A stretch of DNA of 11,648 nt from a virus (taxonomy: Duplodnaviria > Heunggongvirae > Uroviricota > Caudoviricetes), in IMG/VR virus record IMGVR_UViG_2671180963_000004, positions 1-11,648 of that record. The stretch is one strand, 5' to 3'. The position numbers were made by a program, and so were the translations under genes. Below, piece by piece: positions 1 through 11,648 of this stretch (position 1 is its first letter; the number at the start of each line of letters is the position of its first letter). A model generated the notes under the pieces. It made no database searches. It was not told the origin of the DNA and saw only the letters and a list, made by a program, of their open reading frames with translations.

Positions 1-219
1 TCACATCCACATAATTTGCTGCCCTGACGGCAACGGGTGCGGCCTCACGGCGTGGACTTCTCCCGGCTTCACGATGTATCGCTGTACCGACTCATAAGTG
101 ATGAACGTGGCGCTGCAATTCACGTTCTGACACTGGTGATAACGCTCTTTTGTCGTGTCAGTGATATAGCGACTTGTACGCGCATGTGCGGCATGCTGGC
201 ATAAAGGACAATGAAACAT
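1..219 (-). CDS. ogr: Ogr-type late-gene transcription activator (72 aa zinc-finger protein)
   Basis: Translation from ATG at 217-219 gives MFHCPLCQHAAHARTSRYITDTTKERYHQCQNVNC..., with a C-x2-C-x22-C-x4-C zinc-binding pattern, and matches P2 Ogr as I recall it. SD-like GAGGTG lies 7 nt upstream. The ORF-track extension to 282 is probably not translated. Stop codon is at 1-3. Confidence 0.88.
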   Translation of the reverse strand: MFHCPLCQHAAHARTSRYITDTTKERYHQCQNVNCSATFITYESVQRYIVKPGEVHAVRPHPLPSGQQIMWM

Positions 220-253
220 CGCGAGCACCTCTTCCGGTTTTGTTGATGGTGCC

Positions 254-282
254 ATTTTAGTTAATTTATCCTTATAAAACAA
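254..282 (-). promoter_or_regulatory. Candidate sigma70 promoter for ogr (-35 TTGTTT at 282-277, 17-nt spacer, -10 TAAAAT at 259-254, read on minus strand)
   Basis: Hexamers read by eye in the AT-rich 80-bp spacer between the D remnant stop (301) and the ogr start (219). No other support. Confidence 0.3.
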
Positions 283-300
283 ACAGATAAAATAAAAACA

Positions 301-1179
301 TCACTCATCATCTTCTGTTTCGTACTCCACATCAGAAAGCCTGACCTCAAGCTCCAGGGACGTCGTGAAGCCGCTATTATTCAGAAAATGTGTCACCTTA
401 GTGATTGTCCAGTCCTGCTCGTCTATGACGCGCTTAAAGCCTGATACTTTGACCGGCGTTTCCGTGTAAATATCTGCCCGACCAGTAGCCAGACTGATGG
501 AGAACTCCGCAACGCCCCGTTGCAGCTTATCCCACTTCGCCTGAGCGGCGCGCATGGCCTGCGCTTTCGTGGCATATACCGTGGTCAGGGCAAAAACGTT
601 GTCAGCCTCACCTGCCATGTATTCACCTTCGCGCGCTTCCGGTACTTTTGGCGCTTTCTTCTGCGTGACCGGTTTCGCTTTCGGGTGCTCCAGTGCGCGC
701 AGGTGTTTCTCTTTCTTTTTGCGTTTCAGTTTTACCTTCTGCTTTTGTGGCTTCGGGTCTTTGGTGTGTAACCACTTTGCCGTTACGCCGGTATAGGCTC
801 CACGGTCAGCAATCGCAAAATGATGGCGGTCGCCGTCGCTGCGGGTTATGGTGACCTGCGGGATTTTTTTACCACTGGCCGTCACCCCCTGCCCCGCTTT
901 GAGAAACAACAATTTTCCCATTTTTACCGACACCTCACCGCCGTTGCGTTCAGCAAGACGGGTCAGGAATTTCGCATCGGACTCCTGCGACTGGTCGATG
1001 TGCGGGATTTTAATTCCGGCCAGTGACGGAGCGACACTGGCCTCCAGCCTGTTACGGGAGGCTATCGCCTCAACAATCGCACCGAGTGTGGTGTCATGCC
1101 AGGAGCCTTCCCGGCGGGAATTGAGCGTCCCGCGAAAATCTGCACTCCGGGCGCGGATGGTAATCCGGCCAGATGACCA
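301..1179 (-). pseudogene. D: Tail protein D (P2 gpD-like), 5'-truncated or frame-disrupted remnant
   Basis: Called ORF 301-933 begins at a GTG. Manual in-frame translation continues upstream as ...ITIRARSADFRGTLNSRREGSWHDTTLGAIVEAIASRNRLEASVAPSLAGIKIPHIDQSQESDAKFLTRLAERNGGEVSVKMGKLLFLKAGQG..., up to an in-frame TGA at 1180-1182. No plausible start codon with RBS; an N-terminal portion is missing. Confidence 0.7.
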
Positions 1180-1357
1180 TCAGCTCACGCTGGCTGAAAT
1201 TCTGGCGGTAGGCTTTCACCTCGGAAATGGTCTTACAGCCCCATGCGCTGATATAAAGGGAAATCAGTGTCGCCTTGCGTTCGGCGAGAATGGTTTCAAA
1301 GTCCAGCTCCTCGACCACATCCGGTGCGGGTAGCTGGTTCAGGTCGATAATCGGCAT
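1094..1357 (-). pseudogene. J: Baseplate protein J (P2 gpJ-like) N-terminal stub; only about the first 35 codons look J-like, remainder runs into D-derived DNA out of frame
   Basis: N-terminus MPIIDLNQLPAPDVVEELDFETILAERKATLISLY matches the P2 gpJ N-terminus as I recall it. The ORF is 87 codons, far shorter than a full baseplate J protein of roughly 300 aa. Sits 4 nt downstream of the W stop, as expected for the V-W-J order. Confidence 0.55.
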
Positions 1358-1361
1358 GGTT

Positions 1362-1709
1362 TCAACTCACAGGGATGGTTAACGAAAGTGGCTGGCCGGT
1401 GTCGTTGTGCTGGCCGGTTAACGTGACCGTCATTCGCCCGTCAAAACTGCGCGCCGTAGTGACGGATGACAGGGTGACGCGGGGTTCCCATTTCAGCACC
1501 GCCATGTAACAGGCGACCTTAATCTGCAACTCAAGCGCCTGGGTCTGCGGCTGGTCAATCATTGATGCCAGCAACGAGCCGTAATCACGACGCATCACCC
1601 GTGAGCCGACCGGTGTGCGCAGGATATCGCCGATACTCTGGCTGATATGCTCAAGGTCAGTGACAGTCAGGCCATCACTGCGATTCATTCCGAGATAACG
1701 TGCTGTCAT
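1362..1709 (-). CDS. W: Baseplate protein W (P2 gpW-like, 115 aa)
   Basis: Full-length 115-aa ORF, MTARYLGMNRSDGLTVTDLEHISQSIGDILRTPVGSRVMRRDYGSLLASMIDQPQT.... Its start overlaps the V stop by 4 nt (ATGA). Position V-W-J is syntenic with P2. Confidence 0.85.
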   Translation of the reverse strand: MTARYLGMNRSDGLTVTDLEHISQSIGDILRTPVGSRVMRRDYGSLLASMIDQPQTQALELQIKVACYMAVLKWEPRVTLSSVTTARSFDGRMTVTLTGQHNDTGQPLSLTIPVS

Positions 1710-2341
1710 AGAGGACTCCCGGTTGTGCCGCCGCTGTCTCCTGGGTGTTTGTGGGTATGCAGTACCTTACCGTTTGATGAGAGTTCACCGCCGGTGTGTT
1801 CAATGTTGCCGCGCATCGTCCCGCCCTTCTGCACTTCCAGCGTGCCGGTAATCAGCCTGTTGGTGCAGACCACCTCCGGTGTGTCCAGGGTGACGCGGGT
1901 TGATGCTTTCACCATGACCACCGGCACCGTGGCAGTAACAGAATCAGAAGCCGTCACGCTGACCGTTTTAATTCCGCTTACCGTGAGTGCACTGGTTTCG
2001 GGTTCATATTCAATCACCGCTCCGTCAGGGAAACGGATATGCAGGGCATCCGCCGACGCAGACGGCGCGGGGTTATCGCCGGAATAAATCCCCGGCAGAA
2101 CGAACGCCGTGTCGAGTTCACCGCCCACGGCCAGAATCAGCACCTGCTCCCCCACGGAAGGTGCCCACCATGTGCGCGAACGACCGGCACGATGGGTCAG
2201 CCACTGAAGCCAGTCAGTGCACATGCCGCCGGTCTGCACACGGCAGCGACCGGCGTTAAGGTCGGTTTCGACGACAAGGCCGGTGCGGATCATGTTGCGC
2301 AGTGCGCGCGCGAGTTCCTGAATATTTGCGAGAGTGTTCAT
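1706..2341 (-). CDS. V: Baseplate central spike protein V (P2 gpV-like, 211 aa)
   Basis: 211-aa ORF of the length expected for gpV. Lies between S and W in P2 order. Confidence 0.85.
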   Translation of the reverse strand: MNTLANIQELARALRNMIRTGLVVETDLNAGRCRVQTGGMCTDWLQWLTHRAGRSRTWWAPSVGEQVLILAVGGELDTAFVLPGIYSGDNPAPSASADALHIRFPDGAVIEYEPETSALTVSGIKTVSVTASDSVTATVPVVMVKASTRVTLDTPEVVCTNRLITGTLEVQKGGTMRGNIEHTGGELSSNGKVLHTHKHPGDSGGTTGSPL

Positions 2342-2407
2342 AACGGGAAGGATGCCGCCGGGTCATACCGGCGGCAATGTGACGATGAGGTGTCGGGAAT
2401 GGCACAA

Positions 2408-2860
2408 CTAACGGTCGAGGTGCGCCAGAATAATCTCTTCAATCATCTGCACATCCTCACCGGTAAAGCCGAGCAGGGGACGCGCCGGATAATCAATTTT
2501 CTTACCGTCTTTCCGGTTTTCTTCCGACAGACCGAACTGATGCACACTGGCGATTTTCGGTGACTTTCCGCCGTAAAATTCCATTGATGCCTGTTCCGGG
2601 CTGGCGCGGATATGCAAAAAACGACTGGTGATAAGTTTCGCAAACATTTTTCGCTTAACACGACCAGTCTTTTTTCTGGCGCTCTGCTGCTGGCGTGGCA
2701 CGTAGGGTGTGCCGTCCGGGGCTTTCTGTGCCATCACCCGACGCTGCTGACTCTGCCGCAGGCGCTTCGCCAGTTCGGCACTCAGTCGCCGACGCCCTGA
2801 CGGTGACAGCGATTCAATCAGTCCGGTCAGCCGGTCTTCAAAACGCTTAAACTCATTCAT
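2408..2860 (-). CDS. S: Tail completion protein S (P2 gpS-like, 150 aa)
   Basis: 150-aa ORF; start overlaps the upstream R-frame stop by 8 nt, as in a coupled late operon. Sits in S position upstream of V. Confidence 0.82.
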   Translation of the reverse strand: MNEFKRFEDRLTGLIESLSPSGRRRLSAELAKRLRQSQQRRVMAQKAPDGTPYVPRQQQSARKKTGRVKRKMFAKLITSRFLHIRASPEQASMEFYGGKSPKIASVHQFGLSEENRKDGKKIDYPARPLLGFTGEDVQMIEEIILAHLDR

Positions 2861-3059
2861 CCCACTTACTCACCAGTTCGCCATTGATATAAAGCTCCAT
2901 CGGGCGGGTGACCGGCTCCGGCGGCGGAGGTTCCGGGATATTCTTCACATGCAGCGCGCCGTCCACCTCACTGACCAGCGTGCGCTCGGTCAGCATCAGG
3001 CTGATGCTGATACAGGACAGGATTCGGGAAATAAACGGCTGGCTCGGCCAGGAGGTCAT
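2853..3059 (-). pseudogene. R: Tail completion protein R (P2 gpR-like), 3' fragment only (68 codons)
   Basis: 68-codon ORF ending 8 nt inside the S start, i.e. R position. Manual translation upstream of the ATG at 3057-3059 hits an in-frame stop at 3072-3074. Full-length gpR is roughly twice this size, so this is probably a 5'-truncated remnant. Confidence 0.55.
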
Positions 3060-3105
3060 CCGCTTTAAAAACTACTCACTGGACACTGACAACGGCTGAA
3101 CATCG

Positions 3106-3126
3106 CCGCCTGCGGGCGGCTTTTTT
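3106..3126 (+). terminator. Intrinsic terminator-like hairpin (GCCGCC-TGCG-GGCGGC followed by TTTTTT), plus-strand orientation
   Basis: Perfect 6-bp GC stem with 4-nt loop, followed directly by a T6 run. Oriented for rightward transcription, opposite to the flanking late genes. Consistent with a relic terminator from the far side of a deletion, possibly downstream of gene Q. Confidence 0.4.
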
Positions 3127-3268
3127 ACACCCCGTCATCACGCCCTCACACGCTCACCACCGCACAAAACACCCCGCAGACACACCAACGCCCCGGCGCA
3201 CAATCTAAACGCCATCAAGACGCGCTCAGACGCTGAAAAAATAAAATCAGCACCACCGCCAGCGCGCA

Positions 3269-3287
3269 GTGCTTTCCCCGCCTCGCC
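3269..3287 (-). other. cos: P2/P4-type cohesive end site (cos), 19 nt
   Basis: GTGCTTTCCCCGCCTCGCC at 3269-3287 is the exact reverse complement of the P2/P4 cohesive-end sequence GGCGAGGCGGGGAAAGCAC as I recall it. Orientation agrees with the reversed gene order. Confidence 0.8.
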
Positions 3288-3472
3288 CGCCCGCTTCATG
3301 GGGCATTTTTAATGCAGTTGCATGAACACTCCAAGAGCACACCATCGCTAGTGATAACTAACAATAAAAGCGACTTCTGACGCATGCAAATCCATGCACA
3401 TGATGGCATTTTTCATGATCTATGCGGTATGCTATCCGCTTCAATTTTTAACACTTGTTAAGGGAGCTAGAC

Positions 3473-4615
3473 ATGGACATTATTGATTTAAAATCTCAAC
3501 TAGAAAATGAAGATAATGCCAAGAAAAGAGCAGAGTTGCTTGCTCAGCTAGAGGTGATAAAGCAAAACGCTGAAGAGCAAATTCGTGCTGAGCAAAAGGA
3601 TGTGGATTTTGAGACCAAAGAATTTACCGTTGAGTTATTAGTTAATAAGTATCATAGCGGATTAGAGGATGATACTAACGAACTCTTTGTTCCTGATTAT
3701 CAAAGGGATTTTGTTTGGAGTGAAAAAAGACAATCAAGATTGATAGAGTCTTTGATTTTGGGTTTTCCTATACCATATATATTTACAGCAGATGTTCTCT
3801 CCGAAGATCCCGATTTAGATGGGCGAATTGAGATTGTTGATGGCTCACAGCGAGTTAGGACTATACACGCTTTTATCCAAAATGAATTAGTTTTACAAGA
3901 TCTGAAATCTTTAGACGCCCTTAATGGTTTCAAATTCCAAGATTTACCATTATCACGTCAACGTCGTTTCATGAGAATTCCTGTCCGCGTTATAGAATTG
4001 AGTTCTAAATGCAATGAAGAAACCCGTAGAGATCTTTTTGAACGTATTAACTCTGGCAGCGATATATTGAAAGATATGGAAGTCCGTAAAGGATCAGAAC
4101 TTGGTTCAACAAATTTATATACACAGGTTATTAAGCCATGCTCAACAATACCTAAATTTAAAGAATTAGCACCTTTATCTCAGACTAAAGAAAAACGAGA
4201 TGAACGGTTAGAATTTACATTAAGATTTTTTGCCTACTTAGATAAGTACAAGAACTTTGATCATTCCGTACGGGATTTTCTAAATGACTATATGTTAGAA
4301 AATCGAGATATAGACGAAACTAAACAAAACTCAATGAAACAAGAGTTTGCTAATGTTCTATCTTTTGTTGATAACTATTTCCCAGCAGGATTCAAGAAAA
4401 CTATTACTGCAAAATCTACACCTCGAGTTAGATTCGAATCTCTCGCTGTTGGCGCAGCACTTGCATTACGTGAAATCCCTGACCTTGTTCCCAAGAACTT
4501 GGATTGGCTAAGCTCAGAAGAATTCAAACGATTGACCACTTCAGACGGAGCTAATAGTCGCGTGAAGGTAATTGAACGAATTGAATATGTTCGGGATAAA
4601 TTATTAGAGGATTAA
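3473..4615 (+). CDS. DUF262 (ParB/GmrSD-N-terminal-like) domain protein, about 380 aa, no fused DUF1524/HNH nuclease domain
   Basis: Motifs DYQRDFVW (nt 3695-3718) and IVDGSQR (DGSQR at 3839-3853) are the hallmark QR..VW and DGQQR-type motifs of DUF262. Preferred start is ATG 3473, preceded by SD AGGGAG at 3461-3466; the ORF track uses TTG 3455. No (D/E)HxxP-type nuclease motif seen in the C-terminal half. AT-rich composition. Confidence 0.8.
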   Translation: MDIIDLKSQLENEDNAKKRAELLAQLEVIKQNAEEQIRAEQKDVDFETKEFTVELLVNKYHSGLEDDTNELFVPDYQRDFVWSEKRQSRLIESLILGFPIPYIFTADVLSEDPDLDGRIEIVDGSQRVRTIHAFIQNELVLQDLKSLDALNGFKFQDLPLSRQRRFMRIPVRVIELSSKCNEETRRDLFERINSGSDILKDMEVRKGSELGSTNLYTQVIKPCSTIPKFKELAPLSQTKEKRDERLEFTLRFFAYLDKYKNFDHSVRDFLNDYMLENRDIDETKQNSMKQEFANVLSFVDNYFPAGFKKTITAKSTPRVRFESLAVGAALALREIPDLVPKNLDWLSSEEFKRLTTSDGANSRVKVIERIEYVRDKLLED

Positions 4616-4616
4616 C

Positions 4617-5297
4617 ATGGATCGTTTTCGTGAGGATTTTGACGAAAGGTCAGGAGAGATCTTGGCCTATTTAGATCTTTTGAAATTTATTGAGTATGCC
4701 GGTGCAGAACTGATATCATCTGATGATAAAGAACATAAGTTCTCCATTACTGCTCAATCACGAAAAACTCTAAAGGGGGCAGTATATATTCTATTATATA
4801 ACCTCATTGAATCAACAATGAGAGAAGCTATCTGCCTTATTCATGAGACTATTTATGATAGAAACGTAGAATTTGACAAACTCAGGAAAAATATCAGGTC
4901 AGAAATATTAAAAAGATTAAAAAATGAATCTGTAAATATTGAAAGTTTAGTTAACCGTCTTACTAAAGGTATATCTTGCGGTATATCTTATGGCACTTTC
5001 AACAAAAAGAAAATATTCTCAGGAAATATTGATAGAGAGGAAATCAAAGAAAAATCGAAAATATATGGTTTTTCAACATATTCTGATTACACTCACACTA
5101 AACATGGTGAAAAATTAGCCACTGTCAAACAACATCGTAATGATTTATCTCATGGCAATGTATCATTTGCTGAGATTGGAAAAAATGTTTCATATCAGGA
5201 CTTAGAGAATATTTCATTAGAAGTAATCGCCTATCTTGATGCAATCGCGAATAATATAGAGCACTATATAAATAATAATGAATATTTAGAACAATAG
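4617..5297 (+). CDS. HEPN-like protein with Rx4H motif (putative RNase/nuclease effector), 226 aa
   Basis: ATG at 4617 is 1 nt after the upstream TAA (4613-4615), with SD-like GAGG at 4607-4610, indicating translational coupling. C-terminal region has KQHRNDLSHG, i.e. R174-x4-H179 (cgt 5136-5138, cat 5151-5153), the HEPN signature. Largely helical-looking, K/E-rich sequence. Pairing with a DUF262 protein resembles the MAE_28990/MAE_18760-type HEPN family naming as I recall it. Confidence 0.7.
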   Translation: MDRFREDFDERSGEILAYLDLLKFIEYAGAELISSDDKEHKFSITAQSRKTLKGAVYILLYNLIESTMREAICLIHETIYDRNVEFDKLRKNIRSEILKRLKNESVNIESLVNRLTKGISCGISYGTFNKKKIFSGNIDREEIKEKSKIYGFSTYSDYTHTKHGEKLATVKQHRNDLSHGNVSFAEIGKNVSYQDLENISLEVIAYLDAIANNIEHYINNNEYLEQ

Positions 5298-5303
5298 TAA
5301 TAA

Positions 5304-5320
5304 GGCCTGCAAAGCAGGCC
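5304..5320. terminator. Bidirectional terminator-like hairpin (GGCCTGC-AAA-GCAGGCC) between convergent genes
   Basis: 7-bp perfect stem with 3-nt loop in the 29-bp gap between the HEPN stop (5297) and the methyltransferase stop (5327). Flanked by T-rich sequence on plus (ATTTTAT) and A-rich on the other side. Confidence 0.5.
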
Positions 5321-5326
5321 ATTTTA

Positions 5327-6352
5327 TCATTCTAAATGGTTCTTGATTGATTGCCCAATTGCTTTTCCTAGTTCCACAGGAACAGCATTACCTATCATTT
5401 TCCCAATACTTCTTATAACAAACTTGTCTTTGTCTTCTACAAAGATATAATCCATCGGAAAAGTTTGCAATAAAGCAGCCTCTCTAAGAGAAATCGCTCT
5501 ATGCTGTTCTGGATGTCCAAAACGTCCATTTCCGAAACCATAACAAAGAGTTGTAATTGTTGGACTTGGCTTATCCCAAGACATGCGCCCATATACACTA
5601 GCATATCCTTTACCGCTAGATTTCATATGACAAGCAGCAATCAGCTCCTTCGGCCAGTCCTTCCATGTACCACCAGGAACAGAGTGTATAATTCTTTTTT
5701 TATTAATCGGATTTAATTTACTGGCTCTATGTAATATATCATTTGGATCTGTTTGGCCATCTTCTAACGGAGGAAGATTTCCTATTGCATCTCTAACTGT
5801 TTTCAAAATAACATCGTCACGTTTTACTAACTCAATCGCCCCCAATTTTGAAGCCAACAATACATGACGGGAACGGTTTTGTGGGATTCCATATTCGACA
5901 CAATCAACCTTCGACGCCCAAACATAATAGCCCAACTTTAACAATGAATTATAAAAATCATTATAAACTTTATGTTTAGTTACATCAGGAACGTTCTCCA
6001 TTGTTACGATTTCTGGAGATACTTCGCGAATTAAACGTTCGAACTCATAAAGAAGAGGCCATTTTTTATCATCAGCCTTATCTTTTCCTTGAGTATATTT
6101 TGAAAAAGGTTGGCAAGGTGCGCATCCTGCCAATACTTTTACAGACGCATCACCATAAAGCCTCAGCAGTTCCTCTTTTGTTACTTTAGCGATATCTTGC
6201 TCAATAAACTTAGATTTATTGTTTCTTTCATAGGGAAACCGACATTCCCCCTCAAGGTCTATGCCTGCAACGACATCAAGCCCCGCAAGCTGTAAACCAT
6301 GAGTTAATCCGCCAGCACCACAAAAAAGGTCTATCACCTTTACAGTCATCAT
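5327..6352 (-). CDS. DNA (cytosine-5)-methyltransferase, Dcm/M.HhaI-like, 341 aa
   Basis: Canonical C5-MTase motifs in order: motif I DLFCGAGG (AdoMet binding), motif IV GCAPCQPFS (catalytic PCQ, about 6110-6118), motif VI ENV (about 5990-5998), motif VIII QNRSRHVLLAS, and a C-terminal GNAVPV. SD-like GGAG upstream of the ATG at 6352. Confidence 0.9.
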   Translation of the reverse strand: MMTVKVIDLFCGAGGLTHGLQLAGLDVVAGIDLEGECRFPYERNNKSKFIEQDIAKVTKEELLRLYGDASVKVLAGCAPCQPFSKYTQGKDKADDKKWPLLYEFERLIREVSPEIVTMENVPDVTKHKVYNDFYNSLLKLGYYVWASKVDCVEYGIPQNRSRHVLLASKLGAIELVKRDDVILKTVRDAIGNLPPLEDGQTDPNDILHRASKLNPINKKRIIHSVPGGTWKDWPKELIAACHMKSSGKGYASVYGRMSWDKPSPTITTLCYGFGNGRFGHPEQHRAISLREAALLQTFPMDYIFVEDKDKFVIRSIGKMIGNAVPVELGKAIGQSIKNHLE

Positions 6353-6435
6353 TCACTCCAAATCTATACGATGCTCAGTATACATCCCTTTCTACAAAAT
6401 CTCGAGGCCTAACTTATAAACTCCTATTGATTGAG

Positions 6436-8535
6436 TTAACGCTTCACTGAGTTTGACTCTAATACTGTTGAGAATCCCGGCCACTCATCAGCGACCTGAT
6501 AAGTAAAATGTTTCCCGTCATAATTTACGGTCGCCCCACGCGCCAGCGCCTCAAGCTCCCATCGCTGCGGCCTGATACCGTTCTGAGCGAGGTCAACGCG
6601 GATACGGGTAATTTGCATTCGTTCCGACCGGGTCAGTCTGGCCGATGGTGCCATTTCATACTGTTTTAACGGGCTTCCGTTTCTCTGCTGACGATTTGGT
6701 GTTCTCAGCCCGTGTTTTAATGCGCCCCTGAGCGCCCTCACGACCTCCGGGTCATTCCATTCGATAACACCGTCATCAACCAGATTAAGCACTGCTGCGG
6801 CGTGCTCAGAAGGCGTGGGAGCCGGTAACGAAGTATCACCGCTGGTGAGCTTTCCACAGTTATTGACAGGACTCCGAGGCGCGGCGATGCCGCTTTTTAA
6901 AGTCAAAGGCTCAACGACCGGCACTTTCGGAACAATGCGCCAGTCCGTCGTTCTGGTGATATGAATATGACGCGCGCCGAGATGCGGCGCGTAAATGCCG
7001 ACCACTCTCTCGACTTCTTCCTCGTACTCGTTAACTTCATCCGACGGACTACGGGCGACCCTGACAGTCTGACAATCGCGCGGGACATTTGCCCCACCCT
7101 GCGCGCTGATATACAGCGCAAAATCACCACTGTCTGCGGCGGCGCGTGCAGCCTCGACGCGCTCGTCAAACTCATCAGCAATGCTGACGCCGCGAGGCAA
7201 TTTGCGTAGTTCACGGTAAGCCCCCATTGTCGGCAGGCCAACCGTTTTAAATTGCGGAATGCGCCACGTTGACGCCCATGCGGTAACAGCCGCGGCAGTA
7301 TCTTTCAGCGGTCTGCCGGTATCGTTATCGAGCTGCCCATCCAGTGCATAGCCGTCGATATTTTTTGAGATGTATTTCGCGATATACCCCGCAGCACCGC
7401 CCCGATTAAGATGTTTTGCCTGAAAACGGTTTCGCGCGGCTCCTCTTTCGTCGCCATCCTCTTTGAGCGCATAGCGACGCATGATTTCGATAATCTGGTT
7501 ACGCTGGCGTGGATTACAAAAAAACATCATATGCCAGTGCGGCGTTCCGTCGTGGTGTGGCTCGACGACTCGCAAACCGTAGACCTGTAAATCATTATCC
7601 TTGAATGCCGTGCGCATCAGGCTCCAGATACGGCAGAGATAACGCTGCGCATCCTTTGGATTAAATGCCTCATCGTTCCAGCCGTGATTTAGCTGGACGG
7701 TTTTACTTTCGCCTTTTCCAACCTGACGTGTCGGGTGATACTTTGACGGCGCGGTCAGCGTGATAAACATCCCCACATCACCCTCTGCGGCGGCGTAACG
7801 CTCAATACCGGCAATGGTGTTCATCAGCTCCATCCGGCGAATTTCAGGATTAGAAATACTGCCCATCACCTTACTGATAAGGTCGATGCGCTCGCCTGTT
7901 TCCCTGTTTTCGAGATCACACGATTTAAGAAATTCCAGATTTGCCTGGCGGCGTGCACGCACATCACGAATGGCATGTTTACTGGCATAAGGAGAACGGT
8001 CTTTATTGACCTCCCCGACAGCAATCAGTAACGCCTCATGCCAGCGCATACGCTGGCCTTTAAGCTGATGAGTCCACCACTCATCGTTAAACAGACGGGC
8101 AATGGCAGAATATGCCTGCCTCGTGGTCATCTGTCCTTTACGGTATTTTTTCCAGTAGAGAGGGGAAATATTGAAAGCACGTGCAGCGCCAGCAACATGA
8201 CCATAGAGGTGAGCCTGCGCCTCATCCGTAAACAGCGATTCTTTTTCGCCATGCGCATCCACCCATGCATCGCAGAGTTCCTCATACATCATGAAAAGCT
8301 GCGATGAGATACGGGCGGCAAACTTTTTCAGCTCCTTGTCATTCATTCCAGGCAGGCGCGCATAATGGTCACGCTCTGCCAGAAACAGCAACGACGCGTC
8401 GGTGTTCATTTCATGGCGCTGATTCACGCGCTCAATGCGCGGCCATAAGCGACGCTGAAAAGTGGATGTGAGGAAATAAAACCCGTGCAGCAGGTATTGG
8501 CGCATCACACTCTTCGCAAACCAGCGAAGAAACAC
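6436..8535 (-). CDS. A: Replication initiation protein A (P2 gpA-like rolling-circle HUH endonuclease)
   Basis: HUH motif in PHHDGTPHWHMMFF and tyrosine pair in GYIAKYISKN, typical of P2 A-family initiators. Called start 8533-8535 is a GTG with an in-frame stop 9 nt upstream (8545-8547); an in-frame ATG at 8503-8505 (MRQYLLHGFYF...) is an alternative start. Coding region overlaps the upstream zinc-finger ORF. Confidence 0.85.
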   Translation of the reverse strand: MFLRWFAKSVMRQYLLHGFYFLTSTFQRRLWPRIERVNQRHEMNTDASLLFLAERDHYARLPGMNDKELKKFAARISSQLFMMYEELCDAWVDAHGEKESLFTDEAQAHLYGHVAGAARAFNISPLYWKKYRKGQMTTRQAYSAIARLFNDEWWTHQLKGQRMRWHEALLIAVGEVNKDRSPYASKHAIRDVRARRQANLEFLKSCDLENRETGERIDLISKVMGSISNPEIRRMELMNTIAGIERYAAAEGDVGMFITLTAPSKYHPTRQVGKGESKTVQLNHGWNDEAFNPKDAQRYLCRIWSLMRTAFKDNDLQVYGLRVVEPHHDGTPHWHMMFFCNPRQRNQIIEIMRRYALKEDGDERGAARNRFQAKHLNRGGAAGYIAKYISKNIDGYALDGQLDNDTGRPLKDTAAAVTAWASTWRIPQFKTVGLPTMGAYRELRKLPRGVSIADEFDERVEAARAAADSGDFALYISAQGGANVPRDCQTVRVARSPSDEVNEYEEEVERVVGIYAPHLGARHIHITRTTDWRIVPKVPVVEPLTLKSGIAAPRSPVNNCGKLTSGDTSLPAPTPSEHAAAVLNLVDDGVIEWNDPEVVRALRGALKHGLRTPNRQQRNGSPLKQYEMAPSARLTRSERMQITRIRVDLAQNGIRPQRWELEALARGATVNYDGKHFTYQVADEWPGFSTVLESNSVKR

Positions 8536-8620
8536 CGCAATGTTTTACCCTTGCCGCGTTAATCTGGCGCTCCAGTAATTCAGCCTGTTGTTCCTGAATA
8601 AAATCTACGTTGTCCGGCAT
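8432..8620 (-). CDS. Small TraR/DksA-like zinc-finger protein (possibly degenerate), 62 aa
   Basis: Contains CEECDAPIPAAR, resembling the C-x2-C-G-x-P-I-P-x-x-RR core of TraR-family phage zinc fingers. The expected second CxxC pair is absent in all three frames; the tail is VLFPHIHFSASLMAAH. Overlaps the A start region by about 70-100 nt. Confidence 0.45.
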   Translation of the reverse strand: MPDNVDFIQEQQAELLERQINAARVKHCGVSSLVCEECDAPIPAARVLFPHIHFSASLMAAH

Positions 8621-8622
8621 TA

Positions 8623-8925
8623 TCAGCTCCTTTTATCGTTAAGTTTCCTGGATACATCAGCGCAATAACTGGCGAGTTCTGTCGTTAATTTTGTCAGTTC
8701 ATCCACTGAGGAAATTTGCTTGTGGAACACAGCGCGTTTAACAAGTAAATTGACCACATCAGACAGGAGGTTTAATTCATTCTGATAAATCGCGATAACA
8801 GATTCAGTTATGTCGCGTTTTTCTTTATCAAGACAAAGTTGAATAAGAGACAAATCACCATTTTCCATAACGGCGATTTTTAAGGCGTTATTCAGTAATA
8901 CAACTGAATGAGAACAGGACATCAA
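8623..8925 (-). CDS. Hypothetical small early protein (100 aa), in the B-to-A interval
   Basis: ORF in the same orientation as the early operon; start overlaps the upstream ORF stop by 4 nt (8922-8925). No recognisable motif. Confidence 0.5.
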
Positions 8926-9146
8926 AGCACCTCCCCGCGAGACAATCCGATATTGTGAAATTTTTCCGACTCCTGACTGAGCAGCTCGACTATCTCCACG
9001 CGGGATAACTCCGCCTTTGTGATATGGCGAATCATGGCGTCAAGATGAGAAGAAAAGCGCGTCGCAGCGTCGGCCTGTGCTTCGGTTCTGGCCTGTTGCA
9101 GCAGTAATGCGTATTTACCGCACTGATTTTCAGAAACTGTATGCAT
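8922..9146 (-). CDS. Hypothetical small early protein (74 aa), downstream of B
   Basis: ORF in early-operon orientation, coupled by overlap to the next ORF. No recognisable motif. Confidence 0.5.
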
Positions 9147-9209
9147 GACTTTCTCCAGGCAAAAAGAAGCCCCGCACGATTAAGTGCGTTAAAAACTCTG
9201 GTTAATTAT

Positions 9210-9710
9210 TTAATGCAAATATTGCTCTGGTTTTACCGACGTCAGAATTGTCGGTGCATACTCAAACAGACTGAATAGTTCACGTAATGCACGGAATAAA
9301 GCATCACGCCAGTAACATGACTCTTCATTAATTCGCCAGTATGGCTGATTGAATTCTTTTTCAGTCAATCCGGCATGCATAAATAAAGTACGACGCTGAC
9401 TGACTGTTAAAAAACTAATATATGCATACTCACTTGCGCCAACCTGACGGCGTTTTGAGAATGCCCCACGCAATTCATCAATTGCACAAACCAGCCGTTC
9501 ACGTTCGACGTCGTTCATTTCTTCAAAACGCATCGTTGCGTGACGTTGTTTTAACTGCGCATGAAAGCAAACTGTTAGCCGTTCGCGCTCCATCATCTGA
9601 TTATAATAATCACATGTATCCTGCCAGCGAGGGACGGCAAGATGCTTACCAATTATCCGGCGCATAGCTGCTGGCTGTTTTTCGACGAGATTGAGCGTCA
9701 TCACTGTCAT
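9210..9710 (-). CDS. B: Replication protein B (P2 gpB-like, 166 aa, helicase-loader-type early protein)
   Basis: 166-aa ORF of the length and position (downstream of cox and a small ORF, upstream of A) expected for P2 B. Confidence 0.75.
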   Translation of the reverse strand: MTVMTLNLVEKQPAAMRRIIGKHLAVPRWQDTCDYYNQMMERERLTVCFHAQLKQRHATMRFEEMNDVERERLVCAIDELRGAFSKRRQVGASEYAYISFLTVSQRRTLFMHAGLTEKEFNQPYWRINEESCYWRDALFRALRELFSLFEYAPTILTSVKPEQYLH

Positions 9711-9877
9711 TTCCAGACCCTCCGGCTTTTCAGAAAGGTCAGAGCCTTTTTTAACGGACTCTGTTTTTTGGTGCGGATAATGATTCCCTTACGCCCCTTA
9801 CCGTGGGTGATGGTGAAGTCAATCGCCCTGGGGCTTTCGTTACGCAGTAACTGAGCAATACAACGCGGTTCACTCAT
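9707..9877 (-). CDS. Small early ORF between cox and B (orf78-like position), about 56 aa
   Basis: ORF track starts at ATG 9902-9904, which would overlap the cox 3' end by 25 nt. In-frame ATG at 9875-9877 lies 2 nt after the cox stop and is preferred. Stop overlaps the B start (ATGA-type). Confidence 0.45.
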   Translation of the reverse strand: MSEPRCIAQLLRNESPRAIDFTITHGKGRKGIIIRTKKQSPLKKALTFLKSRRVWK

Positions 9878-9879
9878 AA

Positions 9880-10152
9880 TCACAACCCCATCCACAAAAG
9901 CCATGCATCACGCTGTTCAACTGGTCGGTTATAAAACGCCTCTCGTACAGCGCGATTAAACTCTGGAATGAAAACCCACTTCTCACCGACACGAGCGTTC
10001 GGCTTACTTGGATCACGAAGCTCAATAACTGGCAATTTATTCTCTTTTACCATCTTGACTACAGCCGTTTCTGGCTTACCAAGTAACTCTGCAAACTTAA
10101 CCGTATGTACCGCATCAATCGGGTACTGAATCACATAGTCATTGACTTCCAT
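9880..10152 (-). CDS. cox: Cox (P2-type excisionase/early-promoter regulator), 90 aa
   Basis: 90-aa ORF, first gene of the minus-strand early operon and divergent from C. Region KLPVIELRDPSKPNARVGEKWVFIPEFN...RDAWLLWMGL resembles P2 Cox as I recall it. Confidence 0.78.
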   Translation of the reverse strand: MEVNDYVIQYPIDAVHTVKFAELLGKPETAVVKMVKENKLPVIELRDPSKPNARVGEKWVFIPEFNRAVREAFYNRPVEQRDAWLLWMGL

Positions 10153-10197
10153 TGATTAGCCCTTTTTGCTTTCGTGTTACCCTTATTAGATCCAGCC

Positions 10198-10227
10198 CCT
10201 TCTAGGTCGCCCCTGTCCTTTCTAGGG
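10198..10227. repeat. Direct repeats CCTTCTAGG / CCTTTCTAGG (10198-10206 and 10218-10227): second candidate operator or Cox-box pair
   Basis: Near-identical 9-10-bp direct repeats spaced about 21 bp apart (two helical turns) in the cox-C intergenic region. Confidence 0.3.
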
Positions 10228-10248
10228 ACTGGCTAACACACTCAAAAG

Positions 10249-10292
10249 GTCACCAATACACAACCTTTTGACGGGAATATAAGTCACCAATA
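10249..10292. repeat. Direct repeats GTCACCAATA (10249-10258 and 10283-10292) flanking the candidate Pe -10: candidate repressor (C) or Cox operator half-sites
   Basis: Exact 10-bp direct repeat, 34 bp apart, one copy inside the Pe spacer and one just downstream of the predicted start site. Confidence 0.35.
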
Positions 10293-10304
10293 GGTTACTG
10301 TCAA
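10276..10304 (-). promoter_or_regulatory. Candidate early promoter Pe (minus strand): -35 TTGACA (10304-10299), 17-nt spacer, -10 TATATT (10281-10276)
   Basis: Near-consensus hexamers with 17-bp spacing, read on the minus strand. Lies on the C-proximal side of the cox-C intergenic region, consistent with the face-to-face Pe/Pc arrangement described for P2. Confidence 0.5.
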
Positions 10305-10598
10305 ATGCAGACATTCGAAAAACTGAAAGCGATTAGGAAAGCAGAAGGCTTAACACAGGCGAAATTCAGCGAAATTAGCGGGATAGCTCTAGGAACAGTC
10401 AAAAATTACGAAAGTGGGCATAAAGACCCTGGTCTCAGCATCGTTATGCGAGTCACAAATACGCCTTTATTTAAAAAATATACGCTCTGGTTAATGACTG
10501 GTGATACGTCACCACAAGCTGGTCAGATCGCGCCGGCTCTCGCACACATTGGGCAAAAACCAACAGAATCAGACCGCTCCGAAAAACAGACTGGTTAA
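10305..10598 (+). CDS. C: Immunity repressor C (P2 C-like, 97 aa, HTH)
   Basis: N-terminal helix-turn-helix region LTQAKFSEISGIALGTVKNYESG. C-terminal KYTLWLMTGDTSPQAGQIAPALAHIGQ closely resembles P2 C as I recall it. Divergent from cox and upstream of int. Confidence 0.82.
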   Translation: MQTFEKLKAIRKAEGLTQAKFSEISGIALGTVKNYESGHKDPGLSIVMRVTNTPLFKKYTLWLMTGDTSPQAGQIAPALAHIGQKPTESDRSEKQTG

Positions 10599-10667
10599 CA
10601 CTCTATAAACATTACATTTTCACCATTTGTTACCAAGATGGTGAATACAGCGTCAGAGGGCTTTCTT

Positions 10668-11648
10668 ATGTCAATTAAGAAGCTCGATGATGGACGCTAT
10701 GAAGTGGACATTAGACCTCGCGGTCGCGACGGAAAACGCATCCGCAGGAAATTTGAAAGAAAAGCTGAGGCTGTAGCATTTGAGCGATACACAATCGCCT
10801 ACGCCAGCCAGAAAGAATGGGCAGGTCAGCGAGCAGATCGCAGAACTTTGAGTGAGTTGCTGGACATCTGGTGGAAATATCACGGGCAAAACCACGAGCA
10901 TGGAACAAAAGAGTTTAATCATCTGCTCAAAACCATCAGCGGCATAGGTGATATACCAGTGAGCCGGATGAGCAAAAGAGCTTTGATGGATTATCGTTCC
11001 ATGCGACTACGAAATGGTATCAGTGCCGCAACGATAAACCGTGACATGTACCGATTATCCGGCATGTTCACAAAATTAATTCAATTGGATGAATTTTCCG
11101 GGCAACACCCAATTCACGGACTGCCGCCACTGGCGGAGGCCAACCCTGAAATGACGTTCCTGGAAAAAGCAGAAATCGAAAAACTGTTAAATGTTTTGGA
11201 TGGTGATGACTTACTTGTCGCACTTTTATGTCTGAGCACTGGAGGAAGATGGACGGAAGTTGCCACGCTAAAACCAGCACAGATTACAAATTGCAGGGTT
11301 ACCTTCCTGAAAACCAAAAACGGTAAAAAGCGAACCGTGCCGATTTCTGAGGAACTGGAGAAAAAAGTTAAAGAGGAGGCCAGCGCTAAATTATTCAAAG
11401 TTGATTATGAGAAGTTTTGCGGGATTTTACGCAGAGTGAAGCCAGATATACCACCCAATCAGGCAACCCACATCCTGCGGCATACATTCGCAAGCCATTT
11501 CATGATGAATGGGGGCAATATAATCGCACTGCAACAGATTCTGGGACATGCGAGCATTCAGCAGACGATGGCCTATGCGCACCTTGCGCCTGACTACCTG
11601 CAAAATGCCGTCGCGCTGAATCCTCTAAAAGGCGGAGTGACGTTATAA
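10668..11648 (+). CDS. int: Tyrosine integrase (P2 Int-like), about 326 aa
   Basis: MSIKKLDDGRYEVDIRP... matches the P2 Int N-terminus as I recall it. C-terminal catalytic region HILRHTFASHFMMNGGNIIALQQILGHASIQQTMAYAHL carries the H-x-x-R box and Tyr of tyrosine recombinases. Preferred start is ATG 10668 with SD AGAGGG at 10655-10660; the ORF track starts at 10638. Stop is at 11646-11648, the window edge. Confidence 0.9.
   Translation: MSIKKLDDGRYEVDIRPRGRDGKRIRRKFERKAEAVAFERYTIAYASQKEWAGQRADRRTLSELLDIWWKYHGQNHEHGTKEFNHLLKTISGIGDIPVSRMSKRALMDYRSMRLRNGISAATINRDMYRLSGMFTKLIQLDEFSGQHPIHGLPPLAEANPEMTFLEKAEIEKLLNVLDGDDLLVALLCLSTGGRWTEVATLKPAQITNCRVTFLKTKNGKKRTVPISEELEKKVKEEASAKLFKVDYEKFCGILRRVKPDIPPNQATHILRHTFASHFMMNGGNIIALQQILGHASIQQTMAYAHLAPDYLQNAVALNPLKGGVTL

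Follow-up and report, generated by a model that had tools for sequence, protein, structure and literature searches.

A P2-family cos site carried by a four-deletion P2-like prophage remnant between fieF and cpxP of Escherichia coli

Described P2-family cos sites and the prophage studied here

The cos site of P2 and P4, the defence hotspot in its neighbourhood and the existence of defective P2-like prophages are already well described, and the finding reported here mainly confirms annotation. Passages of PMC5694545, PMC9594776 and PMC2231350 attribute a 55-bp cos core to Ziermann & Calendar 1990, and the P2 anti-phage hotspot between gpA and gpQ, adjoining cos, was described by Rousset et al. 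2022 (PMC9122126). In the P2 record (AF063097) the 19-mer GGCGAGGCGGGGAAAGCAC is annotated as cosL (1-19) and cosR (33575-33593), the records of Wphi (NC_005056) and P4 (NC_001609) open with it as their first 19 nt, and phage 186 differs from it at 2 positions. In an active P2-family phage the terminase (gpP and gpM) recognises the core of about 55 bp together with nearby sequence on a closed circular genome, nicks it with a stagger of 19 nt and packages the DNA. Two kinds of molecules without a complete set of packaging functions have been described as well. One is the P2/P4 cosmid, a cos circle that carries no structural genes and relies wholly on a helper for its packaging (PMC2231350, PMC9594776, PMC9942202). 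The other is Sp13 of E. coli O157:H7 Sakai, a P2-like prophage whose head-formation and packaging genes are missing, yet which excises, replicates and has been found packaged at low level, a precedent for packaging by other prophages (Asadulghani et al. 2009, PMC2669165).

The window, i.e., the whole stretch of 11,648 nucleotides that we analysed, is an E. coli P2-like (Peduovirus) prophage with Wphi-type immunity and integrase, located between fieF and cpxP. Megablast against phage records gave piecewise matches to Peduovirus (P2-like) at 95-98% identity, and by local BLAST the window maps in pieces to P2/Wphi at 96-98% identity, in prophage order and reversed with respect to the P2 map. The order of genes is int-C-cox-B-A-variable region-cos-Q...D-ogr, as in a P2-like prophage, and the stretch from the truncated replication gene (A') through the cargo, cos and the tQ terminator to the stub of Q is colinear with P2, Wphi and the nearest intact relative, a gene-complete P2-like prophage adjoining cpxP in CFSAN064036 (L003). 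The leftover late genes (1..3012, minus strand) were assigned from piecewise BLAST to P2, Wphi and L003 and from the annotation of P2 and L003. The pieces are as follows.

1-1161, minus strand: ogr (1-219) and the 3' part of D (to 1161), matching P2 24252-23094
1159-1255, minus strand: a 97-bp fragment of FI, matching P2 18228-18132
1254-3012, minus strand: 5' fragment of J (1255-1357), W (1362-1709), V (1706-2341), S (2408-2860) and the 3' part of R (2853-3012), colinear with Wphi 10522-8764
3000-3287: left-end region from cos through tQ into the last 100 bp of Q, matching P2 286-1
3011..3099, plus strand: remnant of the portal gene Q, its last 29 codons and stop, colinear with L003 from 20001 and with P2 187-286
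3269-3316: P2 right end, matching P2 33593-33546
3317-6455: no match to P2, GC 0.31-0.41
6456-8489: gene A
8484-11648: orf82' to int, Wphi-type, 98.2%
8623..11648: early/lysogeny region, with orf81, orf80, B, an orf78-like gene and cox on the minus strand, and C (10305-10598) and the integrase (10668-11648) on the plus strand

The early/lysogeny region (8623-11648) has zero mismatches to L003 and its ORF lengths equal those of the annotated genes; the integrase shows Int_N and Phage_integrase domains, and ogr (1-219) carries PF04606 (Ogr_Delta). An Rfam scan of the window gave zero matches. The bounds of the window coincide with genes, position 1 being the last base of the ogr stop codon and 11648 the end of the int stop codon. 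The known remnants of E. coli B and K-12 were rejected as the identity of the window, as none of 5,426 complete E. coli genomes holds at least 80% of it in one place.

Set against the described systems, the locus resembles P2 and Wphi in having the same 19-mer, the left-end region with tQ (91-93% over 288 bp) and the same position between hotspot and Q. It differs from P2 by three substitutions in the right-end half of the core, from both phages in being without the cognate terminase, portal and capsid genes, and its cargo consists of DUF262, HEPN and Dcm genes, vs. old/tin in P2 or Wphi's own genes. With P4 it shares the 19-mer, 49/55 positions of the core, a pair of TGCAT motifs ca. 100 bp off and the placement of cos beside a defence hotspot (PMC9122126), and the 11,921 bp between its att copies are close to the 11,624 bp of P4. 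However, it has no alpha primase, sid, psu, delta, epsilon or cI RNA, and its backbone is P2 DNA at 96-100% identity. Sp13 is alike in its P2-like nature and its missing head-formation and packaging genes, but has a P4 epsilon-like gene and experimental packaging, whereas the element described here is known from its sequence and has a truncated A. Finally, the cosmids reach high copy from plasmid origins, whereas this element is a single-copy, repressed insert in the chromosome.

The cos site and its flanking sequences

Four features make up the region around the cleavage site.

3262..3316, minus strand: 55-bp cos core, with the 19-mer between 29 bp of right-end and 7 bp of left-end sequence
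3269..3287, minus strand: cos 19-mer GGCGAGGCGGGGAAAGCAC, exact match to the annotated P2 cosL/cosR
3384..3398, minus strand: TGCAT pair TGCATGGATTTGCAT, TGCAT-N6-TGCAT at -111/-100 from the 19-mer, conserved in position
3100..3268, plus strand: non-coding left end of P2 with tQ, the rho-independent terminator of the P-Q operon, found by BLAST to P2 and Wphi

The first-pass annotation had identified this 19-mer as a perfect match to the cohesive end of P2 and P4, in the orientation expected from the gene order, and on both counts it was right. The plus strand of the window reads GTGCTTTCCCCGCCTCGCC at 3269-3287, and the reverse complement, GGCGAGGCGGGGAAAGCAC, is identical to the cosL/cosR annotated in P2 and to the left end of P4. 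On the minus strand, what follows the 19-mer is the P2 left end, i.e., the tQ terminator and the 3' end of the portal gene Q. It has a single match in the window even with 3 mismatches permitted, it never appeared in shuffled sequences (0/200), and an exact 19-mer is expected by chance at about 1e-7 matches on both strands of 11.6 kb.

We aligned the joined ends of P2, Wphi, 186 and P4 with the window and four prophage loci (L003-L006). The core of the window, TGCATTAAAAATGCCCCATGAAGCGGGCG/GGCGAGGCGGGGAAAGCAC/TGCGCGC, is identical to that of the gene-complete prophage L003 and agrees with P2 at 52/55 positions, P2 and P4 themselves agreeing at 52/55 and the window and P4 at the 49 given above. 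The differences from P2 fall at positions 11, 12 and 18 of the core and result in AAAAATGCCCCA in the window vs. AAAACCGCCCCG in P2; at positions 11-12 the window has AT where P2, Wphi, 186 and P4 all have CC. These three positions are also variable among L004-L006 and L009-L018, which comprise ten gene-complete prophages with the same cargo together with other remnants.

On the right-end side the TGCAT pair is aligned without gaps in the window, P2, 186, P4 and L003-L006, and Wphi has a gap of one column before the motif. Three more remnants (L023-L025) have it at this offset as well, as seen without alignment, and two of the loci (L005 and L025) have one mismatch each, in one TGCAT. The spacer that separates the pair from the core is not conserved in sequence. 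Counted within the window alone, TGCA(N5-8)TGCAT is not above chance, and the informative part is the conservation of position across phages. The pair is for us a candidate accessory packaging or terminase-recognition element outside the core. A second such arrangement, TGCA-N2-TGCAT, adjoins the 55-bp core (3312-3323).

On the left-end side, window 3000-3287 aligns to P2 286-1 at 91% and to Wphi 287-1 at 93%. A hairpin followed by a T-run lies at about 3105-3126 (gccgcctgcgggcggctttttt), and tQ is annotated at P2 160-181, so that the left-end non-coding region has been kept whole, portal-operon terminator included. The similarity between P2 and P4 ends 7 bp into this Q side of cos, and the window retains 257 bp of it; the flanks of cos in the window are in this way the position-conserved TGCAT pair (3384-3398) and these 257 bp of left-end region. 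The alignment with the P2 and P4 cos regions that had been proposed as a check gives an identical 19-mer with core and flanks present, which makes this, by sequence, an intact P2-family cos; judged in that manner, 3269-3287 is a genuine site of this family with core and flanks intact. The same annotation had placed cos next to a deletion junction, and this needs qualification, since the junction is real but lies 257 bp off, at 3011/3012, and does not immediately adjoin the site.

An intact 19-mer could still belong to a site that no longer functions, either through the three substitutions in the core or through the deletion 257 bp off. The AT at core positions 11-12, where P2, Wphi, 186 and P4 have CC, would fit this, and longer flanks of cos are known to alter transduction efficiency more than 1,000-fold (PMC9594776). 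However, the same core with 400 bp of flank is found in the gene-complete prophages of CFSAN064036 and NH-21, and neighbouring variants (AC, TC, CC) are found in many gene-complete prophages. Moreover, as P2 and P4 share nothing past 7 bp on the Q side, a junction as distant as this one should not matter. We regard loss of function as very unlikely.

Deletions, cargo and related remnants at fieF-cpxP

Of 5,426 complete E. coli genomes, two (CFSAN064036 and NH-21) match window 3011-11648 at 100%; this stretch of 8.6 kb is free of mismatches with respect to L003, apart from a single deletion of 593 bp. In all, the window shows four deletions relative to L003 (J1 to J4).

~1161 (J1): D joined to FI
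~1255 (J2): FI joined to J
3011/3012 (J3): 3' part of R joined to the last 29 codons of Q, 257 bp from cos
8489/8490 (J4): 593 bp removed, comprising the end of orf82, the entire orf83 and the first 81 codons of A
6436..8505, minus strand: replication gene A' without its first 81 codons, through the 593-bp deletion vs. L003 and P2
8432..8620, minus strand: orf82' (TraR/DksA-type), its N-terminal 43 codons fused out of frame across J4 to give a product of 62 aa

At J3, ca. 8.5 kb was lost, with Q, P, O, N, M, L, X, Y, K, lysA/B/C and the 5' part of R; the parental sequences match up to 3012 on the left and from 3011 on the right, i.e., with an overlap of 2 bp (TA). P2 coordinates 287-8762, where the same genes lie, have no counterpart in the window, and the loss of packaging genes from this prophage, already noticed in the first reading, is thereby confirmed. 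Gone are the terminase genes P and M, the scaffold gene O, the capsid gene N, the head-completion gene L, the lysis genes and most tail genes, with Q reduced to its 29-codon stub. At the other end of the cargo, A' retains a complete Phage_GPA domain and is called as 689 or 657 aa by gene callers, vs. 765 aa in intact relatives, and the ori nick region at ~6875 is identical to P2 at 61/61 positions. The 97-bp island of the tail-sheath gene FI (1159-1255) is flanked by the D/FI and FI/J junctions, and suggests a complex or two-step rearrangement over one simple deletion.

That the deletions could be an artefact of assembly is a reading to which we give almost no credence. The unusual 97-bp fragment of FI between two junctions is all that speaks for it, and one NCBI assembly and two independent Logan assemblies from different runs agree with 0-1 mismatch. 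CYEL01000013.1 (NCBI, assembly GCA_001283625.2) contains the window at 100% identity, Logan SRR32363960 contains it with one mismatch and SRR21934145 contains part of it; since these assemblies show the same structure, the element is real. The 62-aa product of orf82' is carried by seven contigs.

The element lies between cpxP and fieF. Direct repeats of 47 bp (46/47 identical), spaced 11,921 bp apart, bound it, and repeats of the Int arm type are found on either side. The att repeats fall just outside the window, at 112 and 116 bp in L019. Over 4.2 kb of chromosomal flank, CYEL01000013.1 and SRR32363960 are identical, whereas unrelated strains differ by 0.9-2%; the carriers compared are thus one clone and give no sign of horizontal movement. 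A 30-mer across J3 had zero matches in GTDB representative genomes, JGI metagenomes and IMG/VR.

Beside cos, in the variable hotspot, lies a cargo of low GC.

3473..6352: cargo in the cos-adjacent variable hotspot, GC 0.31-0.38 vs. 0.51-0.60 in the P2 backbone
3473-4615, plus strand: GmrSD_N/DUF262 protein (Pfam), with PADLOC matches to NsnA (2e-54) and PD-T4-2_A (5e-35)
4617-5297, plus strand: HEPN_MAE_28990 protein (Pfam)
5327-6352, minus strand, convergent: C-5 cytosine methyltransferase (Dcm)

PADLOC gave zero matches for the HEPN_MAE_28990 protein. The DUF262 protein is very common in intact prophages (8,001 indexed blocks in the assembly collection), and it stands beside cos in every gene-complete prophage among those listed.

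We also asked how often similar remnants are found at this site, using the 25-kb K_EC180 locus (remnant plus chromosomal flanks) as query against the 5,426 complete genomes. At least 80% of this remnant-bearing locus was found in one place in 56 of them, all deletion derivatives at the same site; about 1% of complete E. coli genomes thus have such remnants, of independent origin, at one site. Measured from att to att, seven remnants have 10,817, 11,491, 11,921 (this element), 12,066, 12,740, 12,892 and 14,823 bp, and lengths estimated from match spans run from 15 to about 25 kb. The six inspected besides this element (K_EC180, H2, 26561, W13-16, GmF046 and isolateD) have one large deletion each, with late genes gone, and keep ogr, Q (frameshifted in H2), cos, the cargo, the stretch from A to int and both att copies. 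They resemble the element of the window in their att site, in keeping ogr, the early region, cargo, cos and both att copies, and in size (10.8-14.8 kb). They differ from it by their single deletion, the retention of Q and a full-length A. With its four deletions, 29-codon Q stub and truncated A, the element studied here is further decayed than the others. Most of the remnant deletions run from a tail or late gene into the terminase gene P (L004, L005, L006, L022-L025).

None of the seven remnants examined has lost cos, an att copy or the early region, which is a possible hint of selection, but the sample is biased, since parts that had been retained were in the queries, and partly clonal. A peak of sizes at the length of P4, as expected from selection by capsid size, was rejected: the sizes are spread as a continuum over 10.8-25 kb, and their floor, near 11 kb, is approximately the sum of early region, cargo, cos and ogr. 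The range of sizes reads as progressive, ordinary prophage decay, possibly shaped by selection on immunity or defence genes, and is not evidence for selection driven by packaging.

Selection on the DNA that flanks cos could have carried the site along. Under such hitch-hiking, the adjacent defence cargo and the immunity/early region would be what is selected, for their benefit to the host; a loss of C without loss of A or ori would be harmful, so that the deletions that survive would be confined to the late genes and cos would come along with its neighbours. The cargo does lie in an anti-phage hotspot known to adjoin cos (PMC9122126), its DUF262 protein is as common in intact prophages as stated above, and in the six other remnants a single late-gene deletion left Q, cos, cargo, A-to-int and ogr in place. 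But the sample is biased to loci containing parts of the query, and in the window A is damaged and Q nearly gone, which means that the block is not immune to deletion. The P2 remnant of K-12 (ogrK and a D fragment), which is not known to retain either cos or the early region, also counts against this explanation. We see it as a possibility to be taken seriously, one that nevertheless falls short of an even chance.

Probable passive survival of cos and the question of helper dependence

The explanation we favour, and which we consider highly probable, is that this is the native cos of a P2-like prophage at fieF-cpxP that has decayed by four deletions, with cos as a passive survivor. The four internal deletions have taken the genes for terminase, portal, scaffold, capsid and lysis, along with most of those for the tail and the 5' end of A, and cos would have survived because it lies inside the undeleted block between the portal stub and the cos-adjacent defence hotspot. 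As it belongs to a block of 8.6 kb that, outside the one 593-bp deletion, is 100% identical to an intact prophage, its presence needs no special explanation, and there is no sign that it has been kept for a purpose. One observation, that the unit of 11,921 bp is within 3% of the length of P4, is not predicted by passive decay, though it is permitted by it. The window is now fixed as a four-deletion P2-like remnant at fieF-cpxP, in which core and flanks of cos are intact in sequence despite the loss of every packaging gene.

Passive survival would leave room for some activity. A P2-type terminase provided in trans could still cut the cos here, an excised circle of 11.9 kb could occasionally be packaged, and the segment with cos and cargo could be rescued by recombination into a superinfecting phage. 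The genes and sites for excision and the steps that follow are intact (int, cox, two att copies, cos, ori, ogr, C and B), and with int, cox, the att copies, cos, ori and ogr in this state, occasional packaging by a P2-like helper may be possible.

A stronger version would make of the remnant a working, helper-dependent proto-satellite, which excises by its own Int and Cox, has its cos cut by the terminase of a helper, and in which cos is under selection. P2-size heads would take it up as a multimer, or P4-size heads as a monomer if a P4-like satellite supplies Sid, and the element would spread its defence cargo. Several facts are in line with this. The core of cos and its flanks are intact, as are int, cox, C, B, ogr and ori, with two att copies delimiting a unit of 11,921 bp; this unit is 1.03x the length of P4, and three copies of it are 1.07x the length of P2. 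Circles of 5-10 kb with the P4 cos are packaged in P4-infected P2 lysogens (PMC2231350), P2/P4 cosmids are transduced by P2 (PMC9594776), and Sp13, defective yet excised, replicated and packaged at low level, is a natural precedent (PMC2669165). Likewise, cos and att have been kept in seven of seven independent remnants at the site. Traits of the satellite type are indeed present, i.e., a cos compatible with a helper as far as its sequence goes, an integrase with att, and the late-gene transactivator ogr.

Against it, the element has been found in a single clone only, its flanks identical and its site the same. A search for spread to unrelated hosts or sites found none, the element being missing from the 5,426 complete E. 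coli genomes and also from the GTDB, JGI and IMG/VR collections. A is without 81 N-terminal codons and is preceded by the frameshifted stub of orf82. Homologues of the P4-type alpha, sid, psu and epsilon are absent from the window, and with them the genes that redirect capsid size and stabilise the capsid (sid, psu) or derepress a helper (epsilon); all DNA outside the 3.1-kb cargo maps to P2. A replication system of its own, of the P4 type (alpha primase-helicase, ori/crr), is also absent, the replication genes being the P2 B and the truncated A. The remnants form a size continuum of 10.8-25 kb, with no peak at P4 size. gpA of P2 acts preferentially in cis, and a helper would hence complement A' poorly. 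To our knowledge, P2-type repressors are not SOS-inducible, which leaves no obvious trigger for excision. Both points count against the helper-dependent reading. The first-pass annotation had seen in the retained cos what a helper-dependent element would need, and as an account of its lifestyle this is not borne out by an element confined to one clone and one site, with A truncated and without sid, psu, epsilon or alpha. We judge a working proto-satellite unlikely. Identity with a P4-like satellite was rejected outright, there being no P4 gene.

The same idea can be put more generally, in that P2-like deletion derivatives of ca. 11-13 kb might be nascent satellites riding P2-like helpers and moving anti-phage cargo. 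As proposed, they would contain int, cox, C, replication functions, ogr, cos and a defence cassette only, and would be packaged in P4-size heads when monomeric and in P2-size heads when multimeric. We find this very unlikely. If it is true, and helpers do package remnants, prophage-borne defence systems could be moved by a simple natural route, and satellite evolution might have begun from such elements, with a satellite arising from its own helper's lineage.

Finally, the exact 55-bp core was found in two contigs of IMG/VR, neither of which is this element. One is part of a prophage of the intact type. The other (IMGVR_UViG_648276665_000003, 11,509 bp) has the same variant of the cos core and the same cargo, and is a different remnant, or a fragment, listed as a virus; in it, the portal/terminase region is directly joined to the tail sheath/tube region.
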